From the IMG/VR virus record IMGVR_UViG_3300045988_169823, positions 1-12,404 of that record: a DNA stretch of 12,404 nucleotides; one strand, 5' to 3'. The notes under the pieces are model-generated. The model saw nothing but the letters and a program-made list of their open reading frames with translations, made no database searches and was not told the DNA's origin. Positions 1,891 to 12,404 of this stretch are shown here, piece after piece (within the stretch, counting starts at the first letter, position 1; each line of letters begins with the position of its first letter). A program made the translations under genes and the position numbers. The stretch is from a virus.

Positions 1891-1892
1891 GA

Positions 1893-1916
1893 TGTTTCAC
1901 GTGAAGCATTTTTATA
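1893..1916 (+). terminator. Weak terminator / CACGTG-centred palindrome
   Basis: ATGTTTCACGTGAAGCAT is a near-perfect 18-bp palindrome followed by TTTTTA, 3 nt after the stop at 1888-1890. Confidence 0.4.
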
Positions 1917-2024
1917 AGGCAAGGGATGAACCGAAATCACTATCCCTTAATCTATCCAAGAGAAGTTGTTAATTTTAGAATAATTTAGGTGTCGTAACAT
2001 TGGTTATACTTTATAGTTGAAATG

Positions 2025-2055
2025 GTTTTAGCTATTTCGCTGTTTCAGCTATTTC
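2025..2055. promoter_or_regulatory. Direct repeats GTTTyAGCTATTTC x2 (17-bp period) upstream of the embedded promoter
   Basis: GTTTTAGCTATTTC at 2025-2038 and GTTTCAGCTATTTC at 2042-2055, centred ~-55 and ~-38 relative to the TATAAT at 2085-2090. Confidence 0.5.
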
Positions 2056-2078
2056 ATAAAGTCTTTAATTCCTGCTAA

Positions 2079-2113
2079 GTGTGCTATAATAACATATAGC
2101 ACACTATTTTTTT
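2079..2113 (+). terminator. Strong rho-independent terminator with an extended -10 promoter (TGCTATAAT, 2082-2090) in its left arm
   Basis: Perfect 10-bp stem GTGTGCTATA (2079-2088) / TATAGCACAC (2095-2104) with a 6-nt loop, followed by TATTTTTTT (2105-2113). TGCTATAAT fits the extended -10 consensus TGnTATAAT. The RBS AGGAGGG (2114-2120) follows immediately. Confidence 0.7.
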
Positions 2114-2126
2114 AGGAGGGAACATC

Positions 2127-4891: not shown

Positions 4892-5977
4892 ATGAAGTAT
4901 TATAGTTTACGTGAAATTTTAAAGAAAAAAGCGACTTATAATGTGATAATCGGTGAAAGAAGTAACGGCAAAACATATTCAGTTTTAAAATATTCCGTTC
5001 AAAAATATGTTAAAACAGGAGGTCAAATAGCTATTGTCAGACGCTGGAGAGAGGATGTCATAGGACGTAGGGCAAGCGGGATTTTTAGTGCTTTAAATGT
5101 TGATGGTACAATTAAAAAAATAACAAATAATGAGTTTTCAGAAGTCTATTATTATGCAGGTAAATTTTACTTATCAAATATTGATGAAAACGGTAAGCAT
5201 ATATATTCAGATGAAAACTGTATAGGTTATACTTTTGCTTTAAGTGAAAACGAACATAATAAATCAATTTCTTATCCAAAAGTCACAACAATTTTTTTCG
5301 ATGAATTTTTAACAAAACATATTTATTTAGCTGATGAATTTGTGCTGTTTATGAACACTCTTAGCACAATTATTCGCCAGCGTGATAACGTTGAAATTTT
5401 CATGTGTGGTAACACTGTTAATAAATATTCTCCGTATTTCGCTGAAATGGGATTATCACATATACAAAAACAAAAACAGGGTACTATCGATGTTTATAGC
5501 TATGGTGATAGCAATTTAAAGGTTGCCGTTGAATACTGTGCAAGTTTAGCTAAACAAAAGAAAAATAATTTTTATTTTGCTTTTGATAACCCGAAACTAA
5601 ACATGATTAAGTCTGGTGTGTGGGAATTAGGCATCTTTCCACATTTACCGAAAAAATATAATAACAGGCAAATACTTTTTACCTACTTCATTATTTTTGA
5701 ACAGCAGATTTTTCAGTGTGAAATTATTGACTATAAAAATGGTAATTTAATTACTTTCATCCATTTAAAAACTTCTGAAATAAAAGATGAAAGTCATGAT
5801 TTAGTATACACGCTTGATGATAGTGAAAAGATGAATTATAATAAAAATATATTAAAACCAGCAACAAGTATTGGTGAAAAAATTAAATGGTTTTTTACAC
5901 ATGAAAAAGTATTTTTTCAAAATAACGATGTTGGCAACACAATAACTAACTATCTTAAAATTTGTGGAGGTATCTAA
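4892..5977 (+). CDS. DNA encapsidation ATPase, phi29 gp16-like (361 aa)
   Basis: Walker A GERSNGKT near the N-terminus, followed by the YVRRW/IVRRW-type motif. Walker B TTIFFDEF. Size and N-terminal layout match phi29 gp16. Confidence 0.85.
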   Translation: MKYYSLREILKKKATYNVIIGERSNGKTYSVLKYSVQKYVKTGGQIAIVRRWREDVIGRRASGIFSALNVDGTIKKITNNEFSEVYYYAGKFYLSNIDENGKHIYSDENCIGYTFALSENEHNKSISYPKVTTIFFDEFLTKHIYLADEFVLFMNTLSTIIRQRDNVEIFMCGNTVNKYSPYFAEMGLSHIQKQKQGTIDVYSYGDSNLKVAVEYCASLAKQKKNNFYFAFDNPKLNMIKSGVWELGIFPHLPKKYNNRQILFTYFIIFEQQIFQCEIIDYKNGNLITFIHLKTSEIKDESHDLVYTLDDSEKMNYNKNILKPATSIGEKIKWFFTHEKVFFQNNDVGNTITNYLKICGGI

Positions 5978-6159
5978 TGGAATATGCACAAGCAATATCT
6001 CAAATTGGTTTTCCAATTTCCATGTGTTTACTGCTTTTAAAGCGTATGCAGGAACAAGACAATTTATACCGTGAAAATGAAGGTAAGCTAAGGGATGTAA
6101 TTGAACGGAATACACTGGCAATTACTAAGTTATTAAGAGAAGGTGATGTTAATGAGTAA
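5977..6159 (+). CDS. Small membrane protein, 60 aa, one predicted TM segment with a charged C-terminus; holin candidate
   Basis: ATG at 5977 overlaps the ATPase stop (TAATG) and GGAGG lies 7 nt upstream. The hydrophobic stretch AISQIGFPISMCLLLL is followed by a K/R/E-rich tail. The ORF track TTG start at 5962 is rejected. Confidence 0.45.
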   Translation: MEYAQAISQIGFPISMCLLLLKRMQEQDNLYRENEGKLRDVIERNTLAITKLLREGDVNE

Positions 6160-7327
6160 AAATAAACTTTTTGACAAATTTTATAACTATCAAGATAAAA
6201 CAAAAAATATAAACACTTATGTTTTTAACTATCTGAATAAGACTAACTCGATGTTTAAATATCATAATCTGCCCGAATCAATCCCTGCTGATATGCTAGA
6301 ATCGTTTTTACAACGCAATGGCTATGTTTGTATAGCTAAGCATGAAAACACTCTCTATGCCTTTGTAGGAGGGTTAGGAGGTGAATTGGATGTTTACTAT
6401 CGACCAACAATTTGTACGGTAGCAAATCCAGCTTTAAATCTTAGCAAGGATTTTGTTATTGATAAAGATTGCATTATCATGAAAAATGATACAAATTTGC
6501 AAGGGCTTTTACCTATTATTTTGCGATATTCTTCAATGCTGGTTGAAAACGATATATCGATGGTGTTGGCTACATATAACACCCGTATACAGAAAATAGT
6601 GAGTGCTAGTGATGATGGTACAATAGCAAGTGCAAAAGAGTATTTATCACAAATAGTTAGCGGTAAACAGGGTATCATTGCTGATAATGCTTTTTTGAAA
6701 TCTTTAGATGTAAAAGATAGTTCAACAGATAATAAGATTATAGAAGAACTTATCAAGCAAAACCAGTATCTTAAATCGTCTATGCTAAACGAGGTTGGTT
6801 TACAAGCTAATACGAACTTGAAAAAAGAACGCTTAGTGTCTGCTGAAATTGAAAGCAATTCAGAGAGTTTATACCCGATTGTTGATGATATGCTAAAATG
6901 CAGAAAAAACGCACTAGAAAAAGTGAATGAAATGTTTGGTACTAACATAGAAGTTGAATTTAATTCCAGCTGGGACTTACGACCTTTAAATGGAATGTCA
7001 GTACACAACACGGATGATGAAATTGATATGAAAGATTTGGAGAGCGGAAACAATGAAAACGATGATAAAAAAACTTCTGCTGAAACTGATGGAGGAGACA
7101 GTGCAGAAGAAAATAGTGGAACTAGAAACACGGATAATGATGAAAATTCATTACAAGATAATGAAGAAAATGGAGGAAATGGAGAAGAAGAATCAAGCGA
7201 TGATAGAGAAGAAAACAGTGGAAATAATGAATCAACAGATGATGAAAATAAAGAATCTATAAAAGATGAAGAAAATGAAAACAATGAAAAAGACGAAAAC
7301 GAGGATGAAAAAGATGATAACAAATAA
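6152..7327 (+). CDS. Head-tail connector (portal/upper collar), phi29 gp10-like, with a ~106-aa polyacidic C-terminal extension
   Basis: Strong collinear similarity to phi29 gp10: NLPESIPADMLE..GYV, GGLGGELDVYY, NLKKERLVSAEIESNSE, LEKVNEMFGTNIEVEFN. Start taken as ATG 6152, 5 nt after the AAGGTGA SD. The track GTG 6143 and ATG 6146 remain possible. Residues from ~289 (nt 7007) to the end are D/E/N/S-rich and low-complexity. Confidence 0.85.
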   Translation: MSKNKLFDKFYNYQDKTKNINTYVFNYLNKTNSMFKYHNLPESIPADMLESFLQRNGYVCIAKHENTLYAFVGGLGGELDVYYRPTICTVANPALNLSKDFVIDKDCIIMKNDTNLQGLLPIILRYSSMLVENDISMVLATYNTRIQKIVSASDDGTIASAKEYLSQIVSGKQGIIADNAFLKSLDVKDSSTDNKIIEELIKQNQYLKSSMLNEVGLQANTNLKKERLVSAEIESNSESLYPIVDDMLKCRKNALEKVNEMFGTNIEVEFNSSWDLRPLNGMSVHNTDDEIDMKDLESGNNENDDKKTSAETDGGDSAEENSGTRNTDNDENSLQDNEENGGNGEEESSDDREENSGNNESTDDENKESIKDEENENNEKDENEDEKDDNK

Positions 7328-7664
7328 TGAATATGTTGATTTAATTCAAGAAGTTTTAAGCGAAAGAGATTTACTAGAACAATTAGTAGAAGAACTTTCA
7401 GAACTCCAGCAGGTCAGCATAAAACTAATAAGAATAAAAACGCTTAATAAACCAAACGCTGAATTTTATGATTTACTGAAAAATTTTAGAGAAGAAGAAA
7501 AAGACATTATTTCAATTCTTCATCTTTTAGATGATAACGACAAATATGGTTGGATAGATGATTATTATAAATATGAACGCTGGTATAATAGAATTATAAG
7601 TGGGATGTATAACAGAACTATGAAAGAACGATATAATAAAATTACAGGAGGGTGTTCAAAATGA
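7314..7664 (+). CDS. Hypothetical 116-aa helical protein
   Basis: Track ORF 7266..7664. Its N-terminus (MKKMKTMKK...) is an out-of-frame read of the connector polyacidic region. The likely start is ATG 7314, 8 nt after GAGGA, overlapping the connector stop by 14 nt. Confidence 0.55.
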   Translation: MITNNEYVDLIQEVLSERDLLEQLVEELSELQQVSIKLIRIKTLNKPNAEFYDLLKNFREEEKDIISILHLLDDNDKYGWIDDYYKYERWYNRIISGMYNRTMKERYNKITGGCSK

Positions 7665-8247: not shown

Positions 8248-8823
8248 ATGAACTTATATGAAAGATTTAATAAATCGTTATTGTGGGATAAAATTAATGA
8301 ATATCAAGCGTTTAGCTGGATTGATATTTTCGATAATGCAAGTCTTAATTTGTTGTGGTTAAATAAATACCATAGCAGGAGTTGTAATTCGTTGGCTGAG
8401 GATTTAGACGATGATAACATAGCTAAAATAATAGCTGGTATGTTTGTTTTTAATTGGAATATTGAATATAATTTATTAAAAGAAAATTGGTTAAAAAATG
8501 GCGATTTTTCAACGACTTATACAGAGAAAAAAACCGAGAAAAACACGGAAACAGGAACGGAAAATAACAACGTAAAAAATAATGTGTCTGCTTTTGATGA
8601 TGAAAATTATACAAATAAAGATGAAGAAGTTTCTACAAAAAATAATGAAAATAACGGCACTAATGACGTTGAAAGAACCTACACAACCAATGGTTATAAT
8701 TCAGCACAAATAAAGAATAAAATTGATTATGTAAAGTATTTGCAAAAAAATAACTTCTTTGATAATATAATAACAGATGTTAATAATTTACTGACTATGA
8801 ATATTGTTGTGGAGGATGATTAA
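8248..8823 (+). CDS. Hypothetical 191-aa protein directly upstream of the capsid gene (scaffold or decoration candidate)
   Basis: ORF with AAGGTG RBS. Trp-rich N-terminal half and a low-complexity N/T/E-rich C-terminal half. The scaffold role is a positional analogy to phi29 gp7 only. Confidence 0.5.
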   Translation: MNLYERFNKSLLWDKINEYQAFSWIDIFDNASLNLLWLNKYHSRSCNSLAEDLDDDNIAKIIAGMFVFNWNIEYNLLKENWLKNGDFSTTYTEKKTEKNTETGTENNNVKNNVSAFDDENYTNKDEEVSTKNNENNGTNDVERTYTTNGYNSAQIKNKIDYVKYLQKNNFFDNIITDVNNLLTMNIVVEDD

Positions 8824-10047: not shown

Positions 10048-10479
10048 ATGAAAATTACTTTTTATAACACAAACTCACCTAATAATAAAATCCAAAAAGA
10101 GTTAAAAAATGCTTTGGAAAAAGATATTAAATTTAAAATGGAAGGTAGTATTTTAACACCTGTTTTGACTATTAAAAGTGAAACTTTTTTTAATTATAAT
10201 TACTGTTTTATTGAAAAGTTTAAACGTTATTATTTTATAAATGATATTGAAATTTATCCTAATAAAATATATATCTTGCATTTAGAAGTTGATGTTTTAA
10301 TGAGCTTCAAAGATGATATTTTAAATAGTCGGGCAACAATTAATCAAGAAACTGTTTTTAATAAATACTACAATTCAGATTATCAAAACTTAGAAAACTT
10401 TGAAGAACACATTTATAAAAGTGATGTAACATTAAGTAGTGAAAAGAATATTATTTTGTCTACGTTAGGAGGGTTATAA
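10048..10479 (+). CDS. Hypothetical 143-aa structural protein; possible homolog of the N-terminal domain of the phi29 tail knob
   Basis: ORF track. There is no proximal SD, but GGGAGGAAGG lies just 5' of the terminator hairpin. The segment YCFIEKFKRYYFINDIEIYPNKIYILHLEVDVLMSF resembles the phi29 gp9 N-terminal region as I recall it. Unverified. Confidence 0.5.
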   Translation: MKITFYNTNSPNNKIQKELKNALEKDIKFKMEGSILTPVLTIKSETFFNYNYCFIEKFKRYYFINDIEIYPNKIYILHLEVDVLMSFKDDILNSRATINQETVFNKYYNSDYQNLENFEEHIYKSDVTLSSEKNIILSTLGGL

Positions 10480-12113
10480 TGGCAGCTAATAGGTTGAGAT
10501 TGTATATTAAAGATAATAAATATGCTAATGTGGATATTAATGGTTCTGATTTATCATGGGTAAGCCAACCTGTTAATGCAGATACTTATAGTTTAGATAG
10601 TTCCGAATGTTATATTTTTTGGAGTGGCTTATCAAAAAATGAACATACTGACAGTTTTGAAATTGCTTTAGCTGGTAGAAAAATAACTGGTATTCAATGG
10701 TTGTCATTAAATAGAACTGATGTTACTGCTGATTTACAAAAATTTGGTATAATTCCATCGTTTCCAAATGGTCATTTCAAATTAAATATCCAATCATTGA
10801 AGTTGTTAAGTGATTTTATCACTAAGAATGACGGTAGCGTTTACACTGATTATAACTACATAAACTTTTCATTTGATACAGGTAAACAACAGTATAACAT
10901 AACTCAAAATCTGACTAATTGTGTATCTGATTTTACTTATGATAAAATAGATGAAGGCGATAATACATTAACCTTAACTTGTTCTGAAATGTGCTTTTTT
11001 GATGATGTGCCCACATTAACAATTGGCGAAACAGTCACTAATTTTACTTTAAACGATGATAAAAATATTGCAACATTAACGATTAATATAACGGGTGATT
11101 GTGTTGTAAATGCAACTGCTACGCAATATTATACTTATCAAGAAACCTTGACTAATTGTAAGTCGAATTTTACAGGTAAAACATTACTCAAAGAAGGTAC
11201 TACGACTTTTACATTTACTGCTGATAGTGGATATATCTTTGGTGAAAACGGAAGTATATATATCCAACCTGTTACAACAAGTATTGAAGGTAACGGAAAA
11301 AGTGTTTTAACTAAAACATATTTGATAGCTGGAAACACAAGAGTTACTTTATCCGCTATTAAAAAAGTTGAAACTTTAAGCACTTTTAATCATTTATATT
11401 TAGTTGATAATGATATTTTGAGTTCTTTATCAAAGAAACGCTATTATAATTCAAACGGTGTTGAAAGTGATTATGGACGTTTTATTACTGATTTATATAT
11501 CATACCTTTCAACATTGAGGATATTTTAAGTGAACAGGCAAATATTATTCTAGGGTTTTATGATACACAAATTCCAGCTACACAAATAAATGGTTACACT
11601 TATAATTTGAATTTAGGAAAAATAATTGTTAATGAAAATTATGGTAATGTTTACGATTATATTAATTCAAAAACGATTTTGCACGTTCCATTTTTTAATG
11701 TTATTGAACTACCTATTGAAAATGTTATGAACCAAACATTACAGTTAAATGTGATAGTTGACTTGTATGATGGTAGTGGCACTCTTAACATAGTTAGTTC
11801 TCTTGGTGGTTTAATTCATAGTGAAACATCTAATATTTTCAAACACATACCCTATATTCAGAGAACAACAGAAACAAGTTTCTTACAAACATTAAACACT
11901 ATTAATAATGATATTACTAATGCTTATTTAAGTATTATAAATAATGTTCCATATAATGTTATTGATGATTTTGGTAAAAACGTTGTTGAATATATGGAGA
12001 TTAAATCACTCACTAATTACTTTAAAATCAACGATATTAAAATGAATACATCAGCAACAAACGATGAAAAAAATAAAATCGTTGAATTGTTGAAAAATGG
12101 TTGCTTTATTTGA
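10479..12113 (+). CDS. Tail protein, 544 aa (tail knob / receptor-binding candidate)
   Basis: Its ATG overlaps the stop of the 143-aa ORF (TAATG at 10477-10481). It is the last and second-largest ORF, beta-rich in appearance, and followed by a terminator. Confidence 0.55.
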   Translation: MAANRLRLYIKDNKYANVDINGSDLSWVSQPVNADTYSLDSSECYIFWSGLSKNEHTDSFEIALAGRKITGIQWLSLNRTDVTADLQKFGIIPSFPNGHFKLNIQSLKLLSDFITKNDGSVYTDYNYINFSFDTGKQQYNITQNLTNCVSDFTYDKIDEGDNTLTLTCSEMCFFDDVPTLTIGETVTNFTLNDDKNIATLTINITGDCVVNATATQYYTYQETLTNCKSNFTGKTLLKEGTTTFTFTADSGYIFGENGSIYIQPVTTSIEGNGKSVLTKTYLIAGNTRVTLSAIKKVETLSTFNHLYLVDNDILSSLSKKRYYNSNGVESDYGRFITDLYIIPFNIEDILSEQANIILGFYDTQIPATQINGYTYNLNLGKIIVNENYGNVYDYINSKTILHVPFFNVIELPIENVMNQTLQLNVIVDLYDGSGTLNIVSSLGGLIHSETSNIFKHIPYIQRTTETSFLQTLNTINNDITNAYLSIINNVPYNVIDDFGKNVVEYMEIKSLTNYFKINDIKMNTSATNDEKNKIVELLKNGCFI

Positions 12114-12134: not shown

Positions 12135-12165
12135 AGGTGGGCGAATGTCCACCTATTATTTTGTT
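12135..12165 (+). terminator. Rho-independent terminator of the late operon at the inner edge of the right ITR
   Basis: AGGTGG-GCGAATGT-CCACCT hairpin followed by ATTATTTTGTT. The stem sequence is identical to the left-end hairpin (251-269) but the loop differs. Confidence 0.7.
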
Positions 12166-12404
12166 AATTATTGTTAGAATATTCTAACATTTATCCGGTC
12201 ATTGATATTTATTGTTAGAATTTTCTAACATCTATTTTAGTGGTGATTTGAATTGTTAGAATATTTTGCATATCACTTCACCGCTTTAATAAACTAAAGC
12301 ATTACAAATATTCTGTCAATTTACTTTAGCACTTTAGCGAACTAAAGCAATCTGAATATTCTGACAATGGGAAAAATTTTTTCACGGAGGGGGGGGATAT
12401 ACCC
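12156..12404. repeat. Right inverted terminal repeat (ITR), 249 bp
   Basis: Reverse complement of 1..249, ending exactly at the last base of the window (...GGGGGGGGATATACCC). Confidence 0.95.

Follow-up and report, generated by a model that had tools for sequence, protein, structure and literature searches.

The connector (upper collar or portal) gene of IMG/VR virus record IMGVR_UViG_3300045988_169823, a 12,404-nucleotide (nt) stretch of viral DNA that was analysed over its full length and is referred to here as the window, encodes a phi29 gp10-type core followed by a C-terminal tail of 106 amino acids (aa). We consider it highly probable that this tail is a genuine polyanionic, disordered extension and a trait of its clade, in which the net negative charge and the scarcity of basic and hydrophobic residues are maintained, the sequence and length are free to change via slippage-type insertions and deletions (indels), and the middle part can be lost. 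Nucleotides 7007-7324 correspond to residues 286-391, exactly the 106 aa quoted in a first-pass annotation of the sequence, and these comprise 24 Glu, 20 Asp, 20 Asn, 10 Ser, 8 Lys, 8 Gly and 6 Thr among others. With 44 acidic residues (41.5%) and 10 Lys or Arg, the tail has a net charge of -34, and it is predicted to be disordered. The description of a long, acidic, low-complexity tail was thus confirmed, but the proposed Asp/Glu content of roughly 45% was somewhat too high, and the stated absence of hydrophobic residues was nearly correct, as seven are present (2 Ile, 2 Leu, 2 Ala and 1 Met), five of them within the first 25 residues. Twelve tails contain 528 acidic residues with a net charge of -408, in agreement with the several hundred negative charges anticipated for a dodecamer.

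In the AlphaFold2 model the predicted local distance difference test (pLDDT) score of the tail was <50 over most of residues 303-391, and the only secondary structure predicted was a five-residue helix at 293-297. No heptad pattern was found in the tail, and searching with the tail alone gave no Pfam or PHROG family. The DNA at 7007-7324 consists of 75.5% A+G, approximately 4 standard deviations (sd) above the genome mean (55.3%, sd 4.9%), and the purine content of all 318-nt segments of the genome peaks exactly at position 7007. The ~330-nt near-pure purine tract noted previously is therefore the most purine-rich segment of the genome, although its purity was overstated. In GC-richer relatives the tails are still acidic with a purine content of only 64-67% in the tail DNA, hence it is the amino-acid composition that gives rise to the purine tract and not the other way round.

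The connector open reading frame (ORF) covers 6143..7327 on the + strand, and encodes 394 aa from a GTG codon or 391 aa from the ATG at 6152, which is the likelier start and is used by independent gene calls; residue numbers refer to the 391-aa protein. Its N-terminal segment looks less basic than what we take to be the packaging RNA-binding N-terminus of phi29. The protein matched the Pfam family PF05352 (Phage_connector) over residues 25-274 (71.9 bits, cut-off 25.6, E 7.8e-20) and PHROG 2038 'upper collar connector' (E 4.4e-44), while a connector profile search of the PDB gave 7pv2 and 1h5w at E ~1e-31 to 5e-32. The AlphaFold2 model, built with 122 homologues, shows the gp10 fold with helical stem, wing and clip at pLDDT >90, and a Foldseek search with this core returned the phi29 connector (6qyj at 8.6e-17, 1h5w at 9.6e-17) and also 7pv2, 7pv4, 8egr and 6iac, with E-values of 1e-11 to 1e-16 for the phi29, GA1 and phiCPV4 structures, on which the core superposes. 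The genomic context is phi29-like as well, with DNA_pol_B_2, Podovirus_Gp16 and Phi29_MCP matches in the window together with 257-nt inverted terminal repeats. The connector is a member of the phi29 gp10 family in every defining feature that could be tested, and its original assignment as a gp10-type connector is supported by Pfam, PHROG, PDB profile and Foldseek matches alike. The end of the core had been placed near residue 288; a structured core followed by a tail was indeed found, but the core ends slightly earlier, since pLDDT exceeds 90 only for approximately aa 11-270, is 75 at 271-280 and drops to ~50 at 281-300. Homology to phi29 and the published work on its connector (PMC3594213) suggest that the connector forms a ring of twelve subunits at the unique vertex, with the C-termini on the side of the capsid interior.

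An artificial fusion created by a sequencing or frameshift error was the main caution attached to the first-pass annotation. The identical 391-aa protein is, however, encoded by a JGI contig and by an independently assembled Logan contig from another sequencing run, an in-frame acidic tail follows the core in each of the 55 database proteins that match it at 91% identity or more, and dozens of tail length variants are all in frame. In eight aligned genomes the tails differ in length by in-frame indels only and the downstream gene is kept in all of them, which excludes an artefact. The tract might alternatively act at the level of the nucleic acid, as purine-rich DNA or RNA or as an overlapping gene, and its purine content, a +1 frame that is open for 69 codons, and a synonymous divergence that is lower in the tail than in the core would fit with this. 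Against it, the acidity of the tails persists in the higher-GC relatives at reduced purine content, no Rfam family matched the tract, and the conservation of the last 60-90 nt is accounted for by the overlapping start region of the next gene. An overlapping gene in frame +1 (7053-7262) was rejected, as it is interrupted by stop codons in two of eight close genomes and is best seen as a by-product, and an RNA element was likewise rejected, with no Rfam family matching anywhere in the window. In our view both the artefact and the nucleic-acid explanation are already refuted, and we assign them next to no probability.

An alignment of eight near-identical genomes, from which the divergence values and the ratios of nonsynonymous to synonymous substitution rates (dN/dS) were derived, and the AlphaFold2 model allow the following features of the connector gene to be distinguished:

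6152..6991, + strand: structured gp10-like core, aa 1-280, based on AlphaFold2 pLDDT and low dN/dS
6992..7051, + strand: semi-conserved junction motif NGMSVHNTDDEIDMKDLESG, equivalent to NGMSVHNTDDEIDMKDLE, aa 281-300, pLDDT ~50, with the helix at 293-297
7052..7234, + strand: hypervariable polyacidic middle, predicted to be disordered, aa 301-361, pLDDT <50
7235..7324, + strand: acidic C-terminal end, aa 362-391, overlapping the translation-initiation region of the next gene
7301..7316, + strand: GAGGA ribosome-binding site (7301-7305) and ATG (7314-7316) of the downstream gene, inside the last tail codons, as read from the sequence
7155-7186, 7222-7279 and 7261-7317, + strand: imperfect tandem repeats of 9 nt (3.6 copies), 24 nt (2.4 copies) and 9 nt (6 copies), respectively, detected by Tandem Repeats Finder

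The core (aa 1-285) has a dN/dS of 0.033, with an amino-acid p-distance of 0.027 and a nucleotide divergence of 0.05-0.09. For the junction (aa 286-300) the p-distance is 0.235 and dN/dS 0.25, and its consensus NGMS[IV]HNT[DE]xEI[DES][LIM]x[DE] is recognisable in relatives down to 57% core identity. The middle (aa 301-361) reaches a p-distance of 0.35 and a nucleotide divergence of 0.13-0.17 with gaps, in-frame indels are frequent, and dN/dS is ~1.25 for aa 301-386 compared to 0.033 in the core. The dS of the tail itself is low, which two-fold codons, AT bias and the anchoring of low-complexity alignments can each bring about. The terminal 30 residues (aa 362-391) are conserved in the close clade (p-distance 0.11, nucleotide divergence 0.05-0.09), because the same DNA also serves as ribosome-binding site and start region of the next gene. 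The downstream ORF has in-frame ATG codons at 7266 and 7314, and gene calls in relatives start at the equivalent of the ATG at 7314. One relative (L011) has its start Met replaced by Ile and a downstream gene call that begins 40 nt upstream of the connector stop codon, and translation must therefore begin further upstream, within the tail-coding region.

The short tandem repeats in the tail are a likely substrate for slippage, and duplicated blocks are found in the tails of relatives, such as 'TSDKTSDKTSDE' in P0011 and L013. The tail of the close relative P0032 (371-aa connector) contains DKKMITNNELTDDE, which looks like a duplicated connector/downstream-gene junction in which the downstream N-terminus (MITNNE) is read through in frame; such a duplicated junction would be direct evidence for duplication and slippage at this locus. 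The connector of P0031 (304 aa, core 98% identical) has an in-frame deletion of ~87 codons, leaving 19 tail residues, NTDDEIDIKDLEDDKDDNK, which consist of the junction motif and the last residues overlapping the start of the next gene. This variant is present on 12 contigs (including L004-L007) from at least four samples and at least two projects, in genomes that are otherwise complete, which shows that, in some settings at least, these phages can propagate without the tail middle.

The tails of the close clade consist of 42% acidic, 11% basic and 5% hydrophobic residues, where the base frequencies of the genome predict 7%, 17.5% and 47%, respectively. The classes of segregating substitutions were near those expected from random codon mutation, with 21.8% basic (22% expected) and 19% hydrophobic residues (26% expected) and a chi-square p of 0.045. 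When set against the core dS of 0.40, the dN of 0.16 in the tail is below neutral. Individual tail positions are close to free on the short time-scale of the close relatives, and the bulk property is nonetheless held over the much longer time in which the core drifts to 39% identity. The dN/dS contrast between core and tail, the in-frame indels and the P0031 deletion together argue for selection on charge and disorder, and not on sequence.

The nearest cultured kin of the window are the ~11.5-kb (10.4-11.9 kb) Astrithrvirus-like phages, which have connector cores 40-46% identical and gene order in common with it, and include Salmonella phages astrithr, Astrid and assan, Pectobacterium phage DU_PP_III, the Acinetobacter satellite phage Phanie, Enterobacter phage Entb_47 and Vibrio phage K58 g2. 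All five isolates compared also have acidic connector tails that are predicted to be disordered (78-145 aa, net charge -17 to -31), although these cannot be aligned to the tail in the window. An exhaustive profile-free search gave 2,798 connector relatives, and within the best 150 50%-cluster representatives (39-53% identical to the core) the tails ranged from 0 to 327 aa (median 70), with 110/150 being at least 30 aa and 134/150 (~90%) at least 20 aa in length. All but one of these 134 tails were net negative (median D+E 38%, K+R 6%), the most extreme having 327 aa and a net charge of -137, and some relatives have tails of down to 8-20 aa. The tails are unalignable between subclades and their repeat units differ (EPADEP, DTEDTK, NEDNAGN, PEPEPE). 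Eleven classical phi29-like connectors, from phages of Salasmaviridae, Guelinviridae, Enterococcus, Curtobacterium, Eggerthella and Bifidobacterium and from two faecal contigs, have only 2-19 residues past the core with a net charge of -5 to +1. The classical and solved gp10-type proteins together are 294-330 aa long, and the window connector differs from them in its 106 extra residues and net charge of -34. The solved relatives are all 301-309 aa and phi29 gp10 has 14 residues past the aligned core, as expected from the earlier remark that its C-terminus is short. The comparison with related phages suggested in the first-pass annotation thus revealed acidic extensions throughout the clade, and these sequences indicate that the acidic tail is a trait of the Astrithrvirus-like 10-14 kb protein-primed mini-phages, in which charge is kept and sequence and length are not.

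The acidic tails of many relatives end in a conserved helix-loop-helix, 'ELQAII.DP.S...KQAA.ELL.EI', and the window tail lacks such a module. Terminal helical modules were listed for L002 (astrithr), L003 (DU_PP_III), L028 (Entb_47), P0141, P0207, P0238, P0257, P0264 and P0188, and within the isolates the helix-loop-helix is found in astrithr, DU_PP_III, Entb_47 and, less clearly, Phanie (4/5), and not in Vibrio phage K58 g2. The tails of other relatives end in heptad-like acidic helices, IEEIKEDIEDIKEDI.

The pattern of variation also raises the question of whether the tail is useful at all. Slippage in codons rich in GAA, GAT and AAT could generate it as a tolerated by-product, with selection purging only basic versions, which would stick to DNA, or hydrophobic versions, which would aggregate. 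The dN/dS of ~1.2 in the middle with its indels and short tandem repeats, the near-random substitution spectrum, the length range of 0-327 aa across the family and the viability of a near-complete deletion in P0031 all fit such an origin. However, the tail is kept in ~90% of the 150 diverged lineages, with medians of 70-91 aa, at a cost of 300 nt or 2.5% of genomes of 10-12.5 kb, the smallest of any tailed phage. None of the 11 classical phi29-like connectors grew such a tail despite the same position of the C-terminus, whereas acidic tails with unrelated repeats arose or were rebuilt in many subclades of differing GC content, and the tail dN is below neutral when compared with the core dS. 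We therefore regard a mere by-product as unlikely, though by no means negligible.

The function that we favour, tentatively and with somewhat less than even confidence, is that of a brush that excludes DNA and other polyanions from the inner channel mouth, which comes closest to the DNA-repelling element among the roles first proposed. With the connector C-terminus at the wide, capsid-interior end, the twelve tails would form a tethered polyelectrolyte brush over the inner portal mouth. Each tail is similar to prothymosin-alpha in size and charge, and such a chain could reach ~10 nm or more. Isometric phi29-type shells with T=3 measure ~37 nm across (PMC11476376). Chains of this length would span much of the radius of such a shell, and a twelve-arm brush may extend toward the middle of the head. 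The brush could keep the first-entering and last-leaving DNA, as well as stray host polyanions, off the crown and the channel mouth. The tails add ~1.6% to the charge of the genome, and the brush is thus expected to matter mainly in an empty or nearly empty head, i.e. in the procapsid and while packaging is beginning or ejection is ending. Its effect would be quantitative and not all-or-none, and its loss costly but not lethal. A brush would tolerate any sequence and a wide range of lengths, which matches the observed pattern.

Several findings weigh against this interpretation. The proposed function is inferred from position, charge and analogy, and the contribution of ~1.6% to the DNA charge implies a small effect on a full head. 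The nearly tail-less P0031 circulates and the classical phi29-like phages manage without a tail, hence the function of the tail is not essential to the connector as such. On the short time-scale, no filtering of changes to basic residues is apparent (21.8% versus 22% expected), and the amphipathic helical tail ends of relatives hint at a binding or oligomerising role that a pure brush does not need.

Prothymosin-alpha, the acidic tail of HMGB1 and the A2 tract of nucleoplasmin have a similar length, charge density and lack of structure, and act via bulk charge with scrambling being tolerated; these are unrelated proteins in an unrelated setting, and the analogy is one of mechanism only. The closest structural precedents come from phage portals. 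The connectors of phi29 (1H5W, 1FOU, 6QYJ), GA1 (7PV2) and phiCPV4 (7PV4) share the fold and family, and the company of PolB, gp16-type ATPase and capsid protein, and the C-terminal peptide of the phi29 connector is likewise disordered and mobile, facing the capsid interior and projecting toward the channel (PMC3594213). Many podoviruses have C-terminal portal barrels, and the P22-type barrel is also an extension outside the conserved core, reaching from the crown into the capsid interior (PMC7617512). It is, however, an ordered helical coiled-coil tube with no sequence relationship to the window tail, which is predicted as coil, with seven aliphatic residues among its 106 and, unlike the relatives with heptad-like acidic helices, no heptad pattern, and an identity with the P22-type barrel was rejected on these grounds. 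In P68, which is phi29-like, 72 inner-core subunits are located on the inner face of the portal (PMC6795507), and P68 gp22 and the T7 core occupy this location in small podoviruses. These are separate, partly helical proteins that are ejected with the DNA, whereas the window tail is covalently joined to the portal and cannot leave. A brush might be the soft, inexpensive equivalent of a P22-type barrel or of the inner core that P68 and T7 carry on the portal. A structured DNA mimic of the Ocr or ArdA type was also rejected, as the tail is predicted to be disordered and matched no Pfam or PHROG family. On these structural predictions, the tail is neither a scaffold domain, nor a P22-type barrel, nor a structured DNA mimic. 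Acidic tails were not described in the literature searched, which did not include the primary Phanie paper, and a review of phi29-like phages never uses the word 'acidic' (PMC11476376).

The window has a G+C content of 30%, is derived from gut metagenomes and carries nearly every gene on the + strand. It is bounded by perfect 257-nt inverted terminal repeats (1-257 and 12148-12404), and thus represents the entire linear genome of a phage of the protein-primed type; the annotation of Pectobacterium phage DU_PP_III contains terminal repeats of 219 nt. The gene complement, in order, is as follows:

terminal-protein position: 210-aa basic protein, isoelectric point (pI) 10.2, net charge +25, the sole strongly basic product
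family-B DNA polymerase (PolB), Pfam PF03175 (DNA_pol_B_2)
gp16-type packaging ATPase, Pfam PF05894 (Podovirus_Gp16)
5977-6159, + strand: 60-aa membrane, holin-like protein, between ATPase and connector
6152..7327, + strand: connector (upper collar or portal) gene, 391 aa plus stop codon, alternative GTG start at 6143
7314..7664, + strand: 116-aa acidic helical ORF, overlapping the connector 3' end
between the 116-aa ORF and the 191-aa gene: GH25 lysozyme, assigned by Pfam
8248-8823, + strand: 191-aa acidic protein, upstream of the capsid gene
phi29-type major capsid protein, Pfam PF25622 (Phi29_MCP)
two tail-knob-like proteins, the large distal one (knob C-part) at 10479-12113, + strand

A linear genome of 10-14 kb with the order terminal protein, PolB, ATPase, small membrane protein, connector, ~185-aa protein, capsid protein and split tail knob characterises the clade, and was found on comparison of the window with Phanie, astrithr and DU_PP_III (cluster 23, PMC11476376). 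In comparison to these phages the window has an additional 116-aa ORF and GH25 lysozyme between the connector and the 191-aa gene, is AT-richer and has its origin in the gut metagenome. A megablast search (5.1 kb versus 50,697 phage records) gave no match, and thus no genus-level nucleotide similarity to Astrithrvirus astrithr, and the sequence comparisons place the window within the Astrithrvirus-like clade but outside the genus Astrithrvirus. Exact-protein look-ups showed that near-identical genomes also originate in gut metagenomes.

The gene complement bears on whether the tail is a built-in scaffold or nucleator, an idea for which the delta domain of HK97, a scaffold fused to the capsid protein, may serve as model: where a gp7-type gene is lacking, twelve flexible tails would recruit capsid protein so that shells start on the portal. 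The earlier observation that there is no clear separate scaffold gene holds for both positional candidates. The 191-aa ORF is a syntenic homologue of gp07 of Phanie and astrithr with the conserved motif KNxVSAF(N/D)SD, has only 8 database homologues, and stands after the connector in the place that gene 11 (lower collar) takes after gene 10 in phi29. It had no Pfam, PHROG or PDB sequence match, hhalign comparison with six classical lower collars was not significant, and the AlphaFold2 model was poor (pLDDT 44), showing helices at both ends of the chain with a long beta-hairpin between them. For the Astrithrvirus-like clade, the review of phi29-like phages includes a small lower collar but no scaffold (PMC11476376). 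Based on this, the gene order and the predicted topology, the 191-aa ORF probably encodes a miniature lower collar, the counterpart of gp11, rather than a scaffold. The second candidate, the 60-70 aa gene in front of the connector, has a conserved hydrophobic, transmembrane-like GFPI(F/V)xCLxLLWF segment in all clade members (equivalents in L001, L002, L027 and L028), and the 60-aa protein of the window has a weak holin PHROG match.

No scaffold candidate was thus recognised in the window, while in AD70P3, a classical tail-less mini-phage of 12.2 kb, the gp7 position is occupied by a gene for a hydrophilic protein of 84 aa, and the tails of many relatives end in a helix-loop-helix or in heptad-like helices that are possible binding modules. 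Presence of the tail and lack of a gp7-like gene go together, but this association represents a single evolutionary event, and some small unassigned ORF could yet be a scaffold. The likely partners are themselves acidic (capsid protein net -15 with an acidic N-terminus, 191-aa protein net -13), which makes purely electrostatic recruitment unlikely and weakens the idea of an electrostatic nucleator. The window tail, with pLDDT <50, lacks a helix or hydrophobic motif past the junction and its helix at aa 293-297, and so has no helical capsid-binding module, and the circulation of the P0031 lineage argues against a strict requirement for the tail middle. The helix-loop-helix of the relatives resembles neither phi29 gp7 nor any solved chain: homology with gp7 was rejected (hhalign probability 0.1%), a PDB profile search gave chance matches only, and Pfam gave only sub-threshold SHOCT-like and SpoIIIAH matches. 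A built-in scaffold is in our opinion clearly doubtful. In a more general form, the tail could be a portal-fused, sequence-free polyanionic factor for assembly and packaging that replaces a separate scaffold, with twelve prothymosin-like arms either nucleating the shell on the portal or capturing the very basic terminal protein on the genome end as it enters. Bulk electrostatics replacing protein-protein recognition would explain a conserved charge without conserved sequence or length, and we consider this version improbable.

The capture of basic partners can also be envisaged without a role in shell formation, with the polyacidic tails acting, in the manner of prothymosin-alpha or nucleoplasmin, as tether or chaperone for small basic proteins or for the very basic terminal protein at the DNA end that is packaged first, and thereby anchoring the genome end or carrying cargo. 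The charge of the 210-aa terminal-protein-like product and three small ORFs with a pI of 9.3-9.6 would provide ligands, and in P68 a single portal subunit holds one of the genome ends (PMC6795507). The classical phi29-like phages, however, have basic terminal proteins and no tail, a tail-less variant exists, and the idea rests entirely on charge complementarity, making it very unlikely. Finally, the tail could be an assembly-only domain that is removed by proteolysis at maturation, with the junction motif marking the cleavage boundary, and some phages do trim portal or scaffold proteins. Pfam detected no protease domain in the ten largest ORFs, the 12.4-kb genome is almost fully assigned, and to our knowledge phi29-like phages mature without a prohead protease, so that we see hardly any likelihood of such removal.

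Other parts of the genome also vary or are conserved in a conspicuous manner. The 236-nt intergenic region at 1891-2126 (+ strand), between a 117-aa ORF and the terminal-protein-like gene, is predicted to form several hairpins (minimum free energy -59.3 kcal/mol, z -3.95) and is nearly invariant in eight genomes whose coding synonymous sites differ by ~30%, with the few changes in stems preserving pairing. It is a candidate structured RNA, possibly an analogue of the packaging RNA, or a regulatory region with a TATAAT box; the Rfam search of the window gave no family here either. The 116-aa ORF downstream of the connector is present in this gut subclade only, is 100-116 aa long in all close relatives, and its start overlaps the last 14-62 nt of the connector gene. 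It had no Pfam match and one weak PHROG match, and contains an EELSELQQ motif that we take to be reminiscent of MazG-like pyrophosphohydrolases. The large distal tail protein (knob C-part) is swapped among otherwise near-identical genomes, its length being 544 aa in the window, 641 aa in L004 and 346 aa in each of L013, L015 and L016, which suggests modular exchange of host range. The terminal-protein-like gene occurs in versions of 210, 204 and 198 aa among relatives, and the dN/dS of 0.17 for PolB was the highest of the genes tested.

No tailed phages smaller than the Astrithrvirus-like phages are known; these include at least one satellite that borrows the tail of its helper, and almost all members of the clade spend 2-3% of a 12-kb genome on a charge-selected disordered appendage. 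If the tail is selected for composition only, viruses would offer a clear case of a disordered region that is kept for its composition alone. If instead it reflects tolerated slippage, the hypervariable in-frame tract would be useful for strain typing of gut phages, and would offer an insertion-tolerant site for display inside capsids. The tail provides a concrete handle on how shell building and DNA handling are achieved with ~15 genes and no recognised scaffold or internal core.

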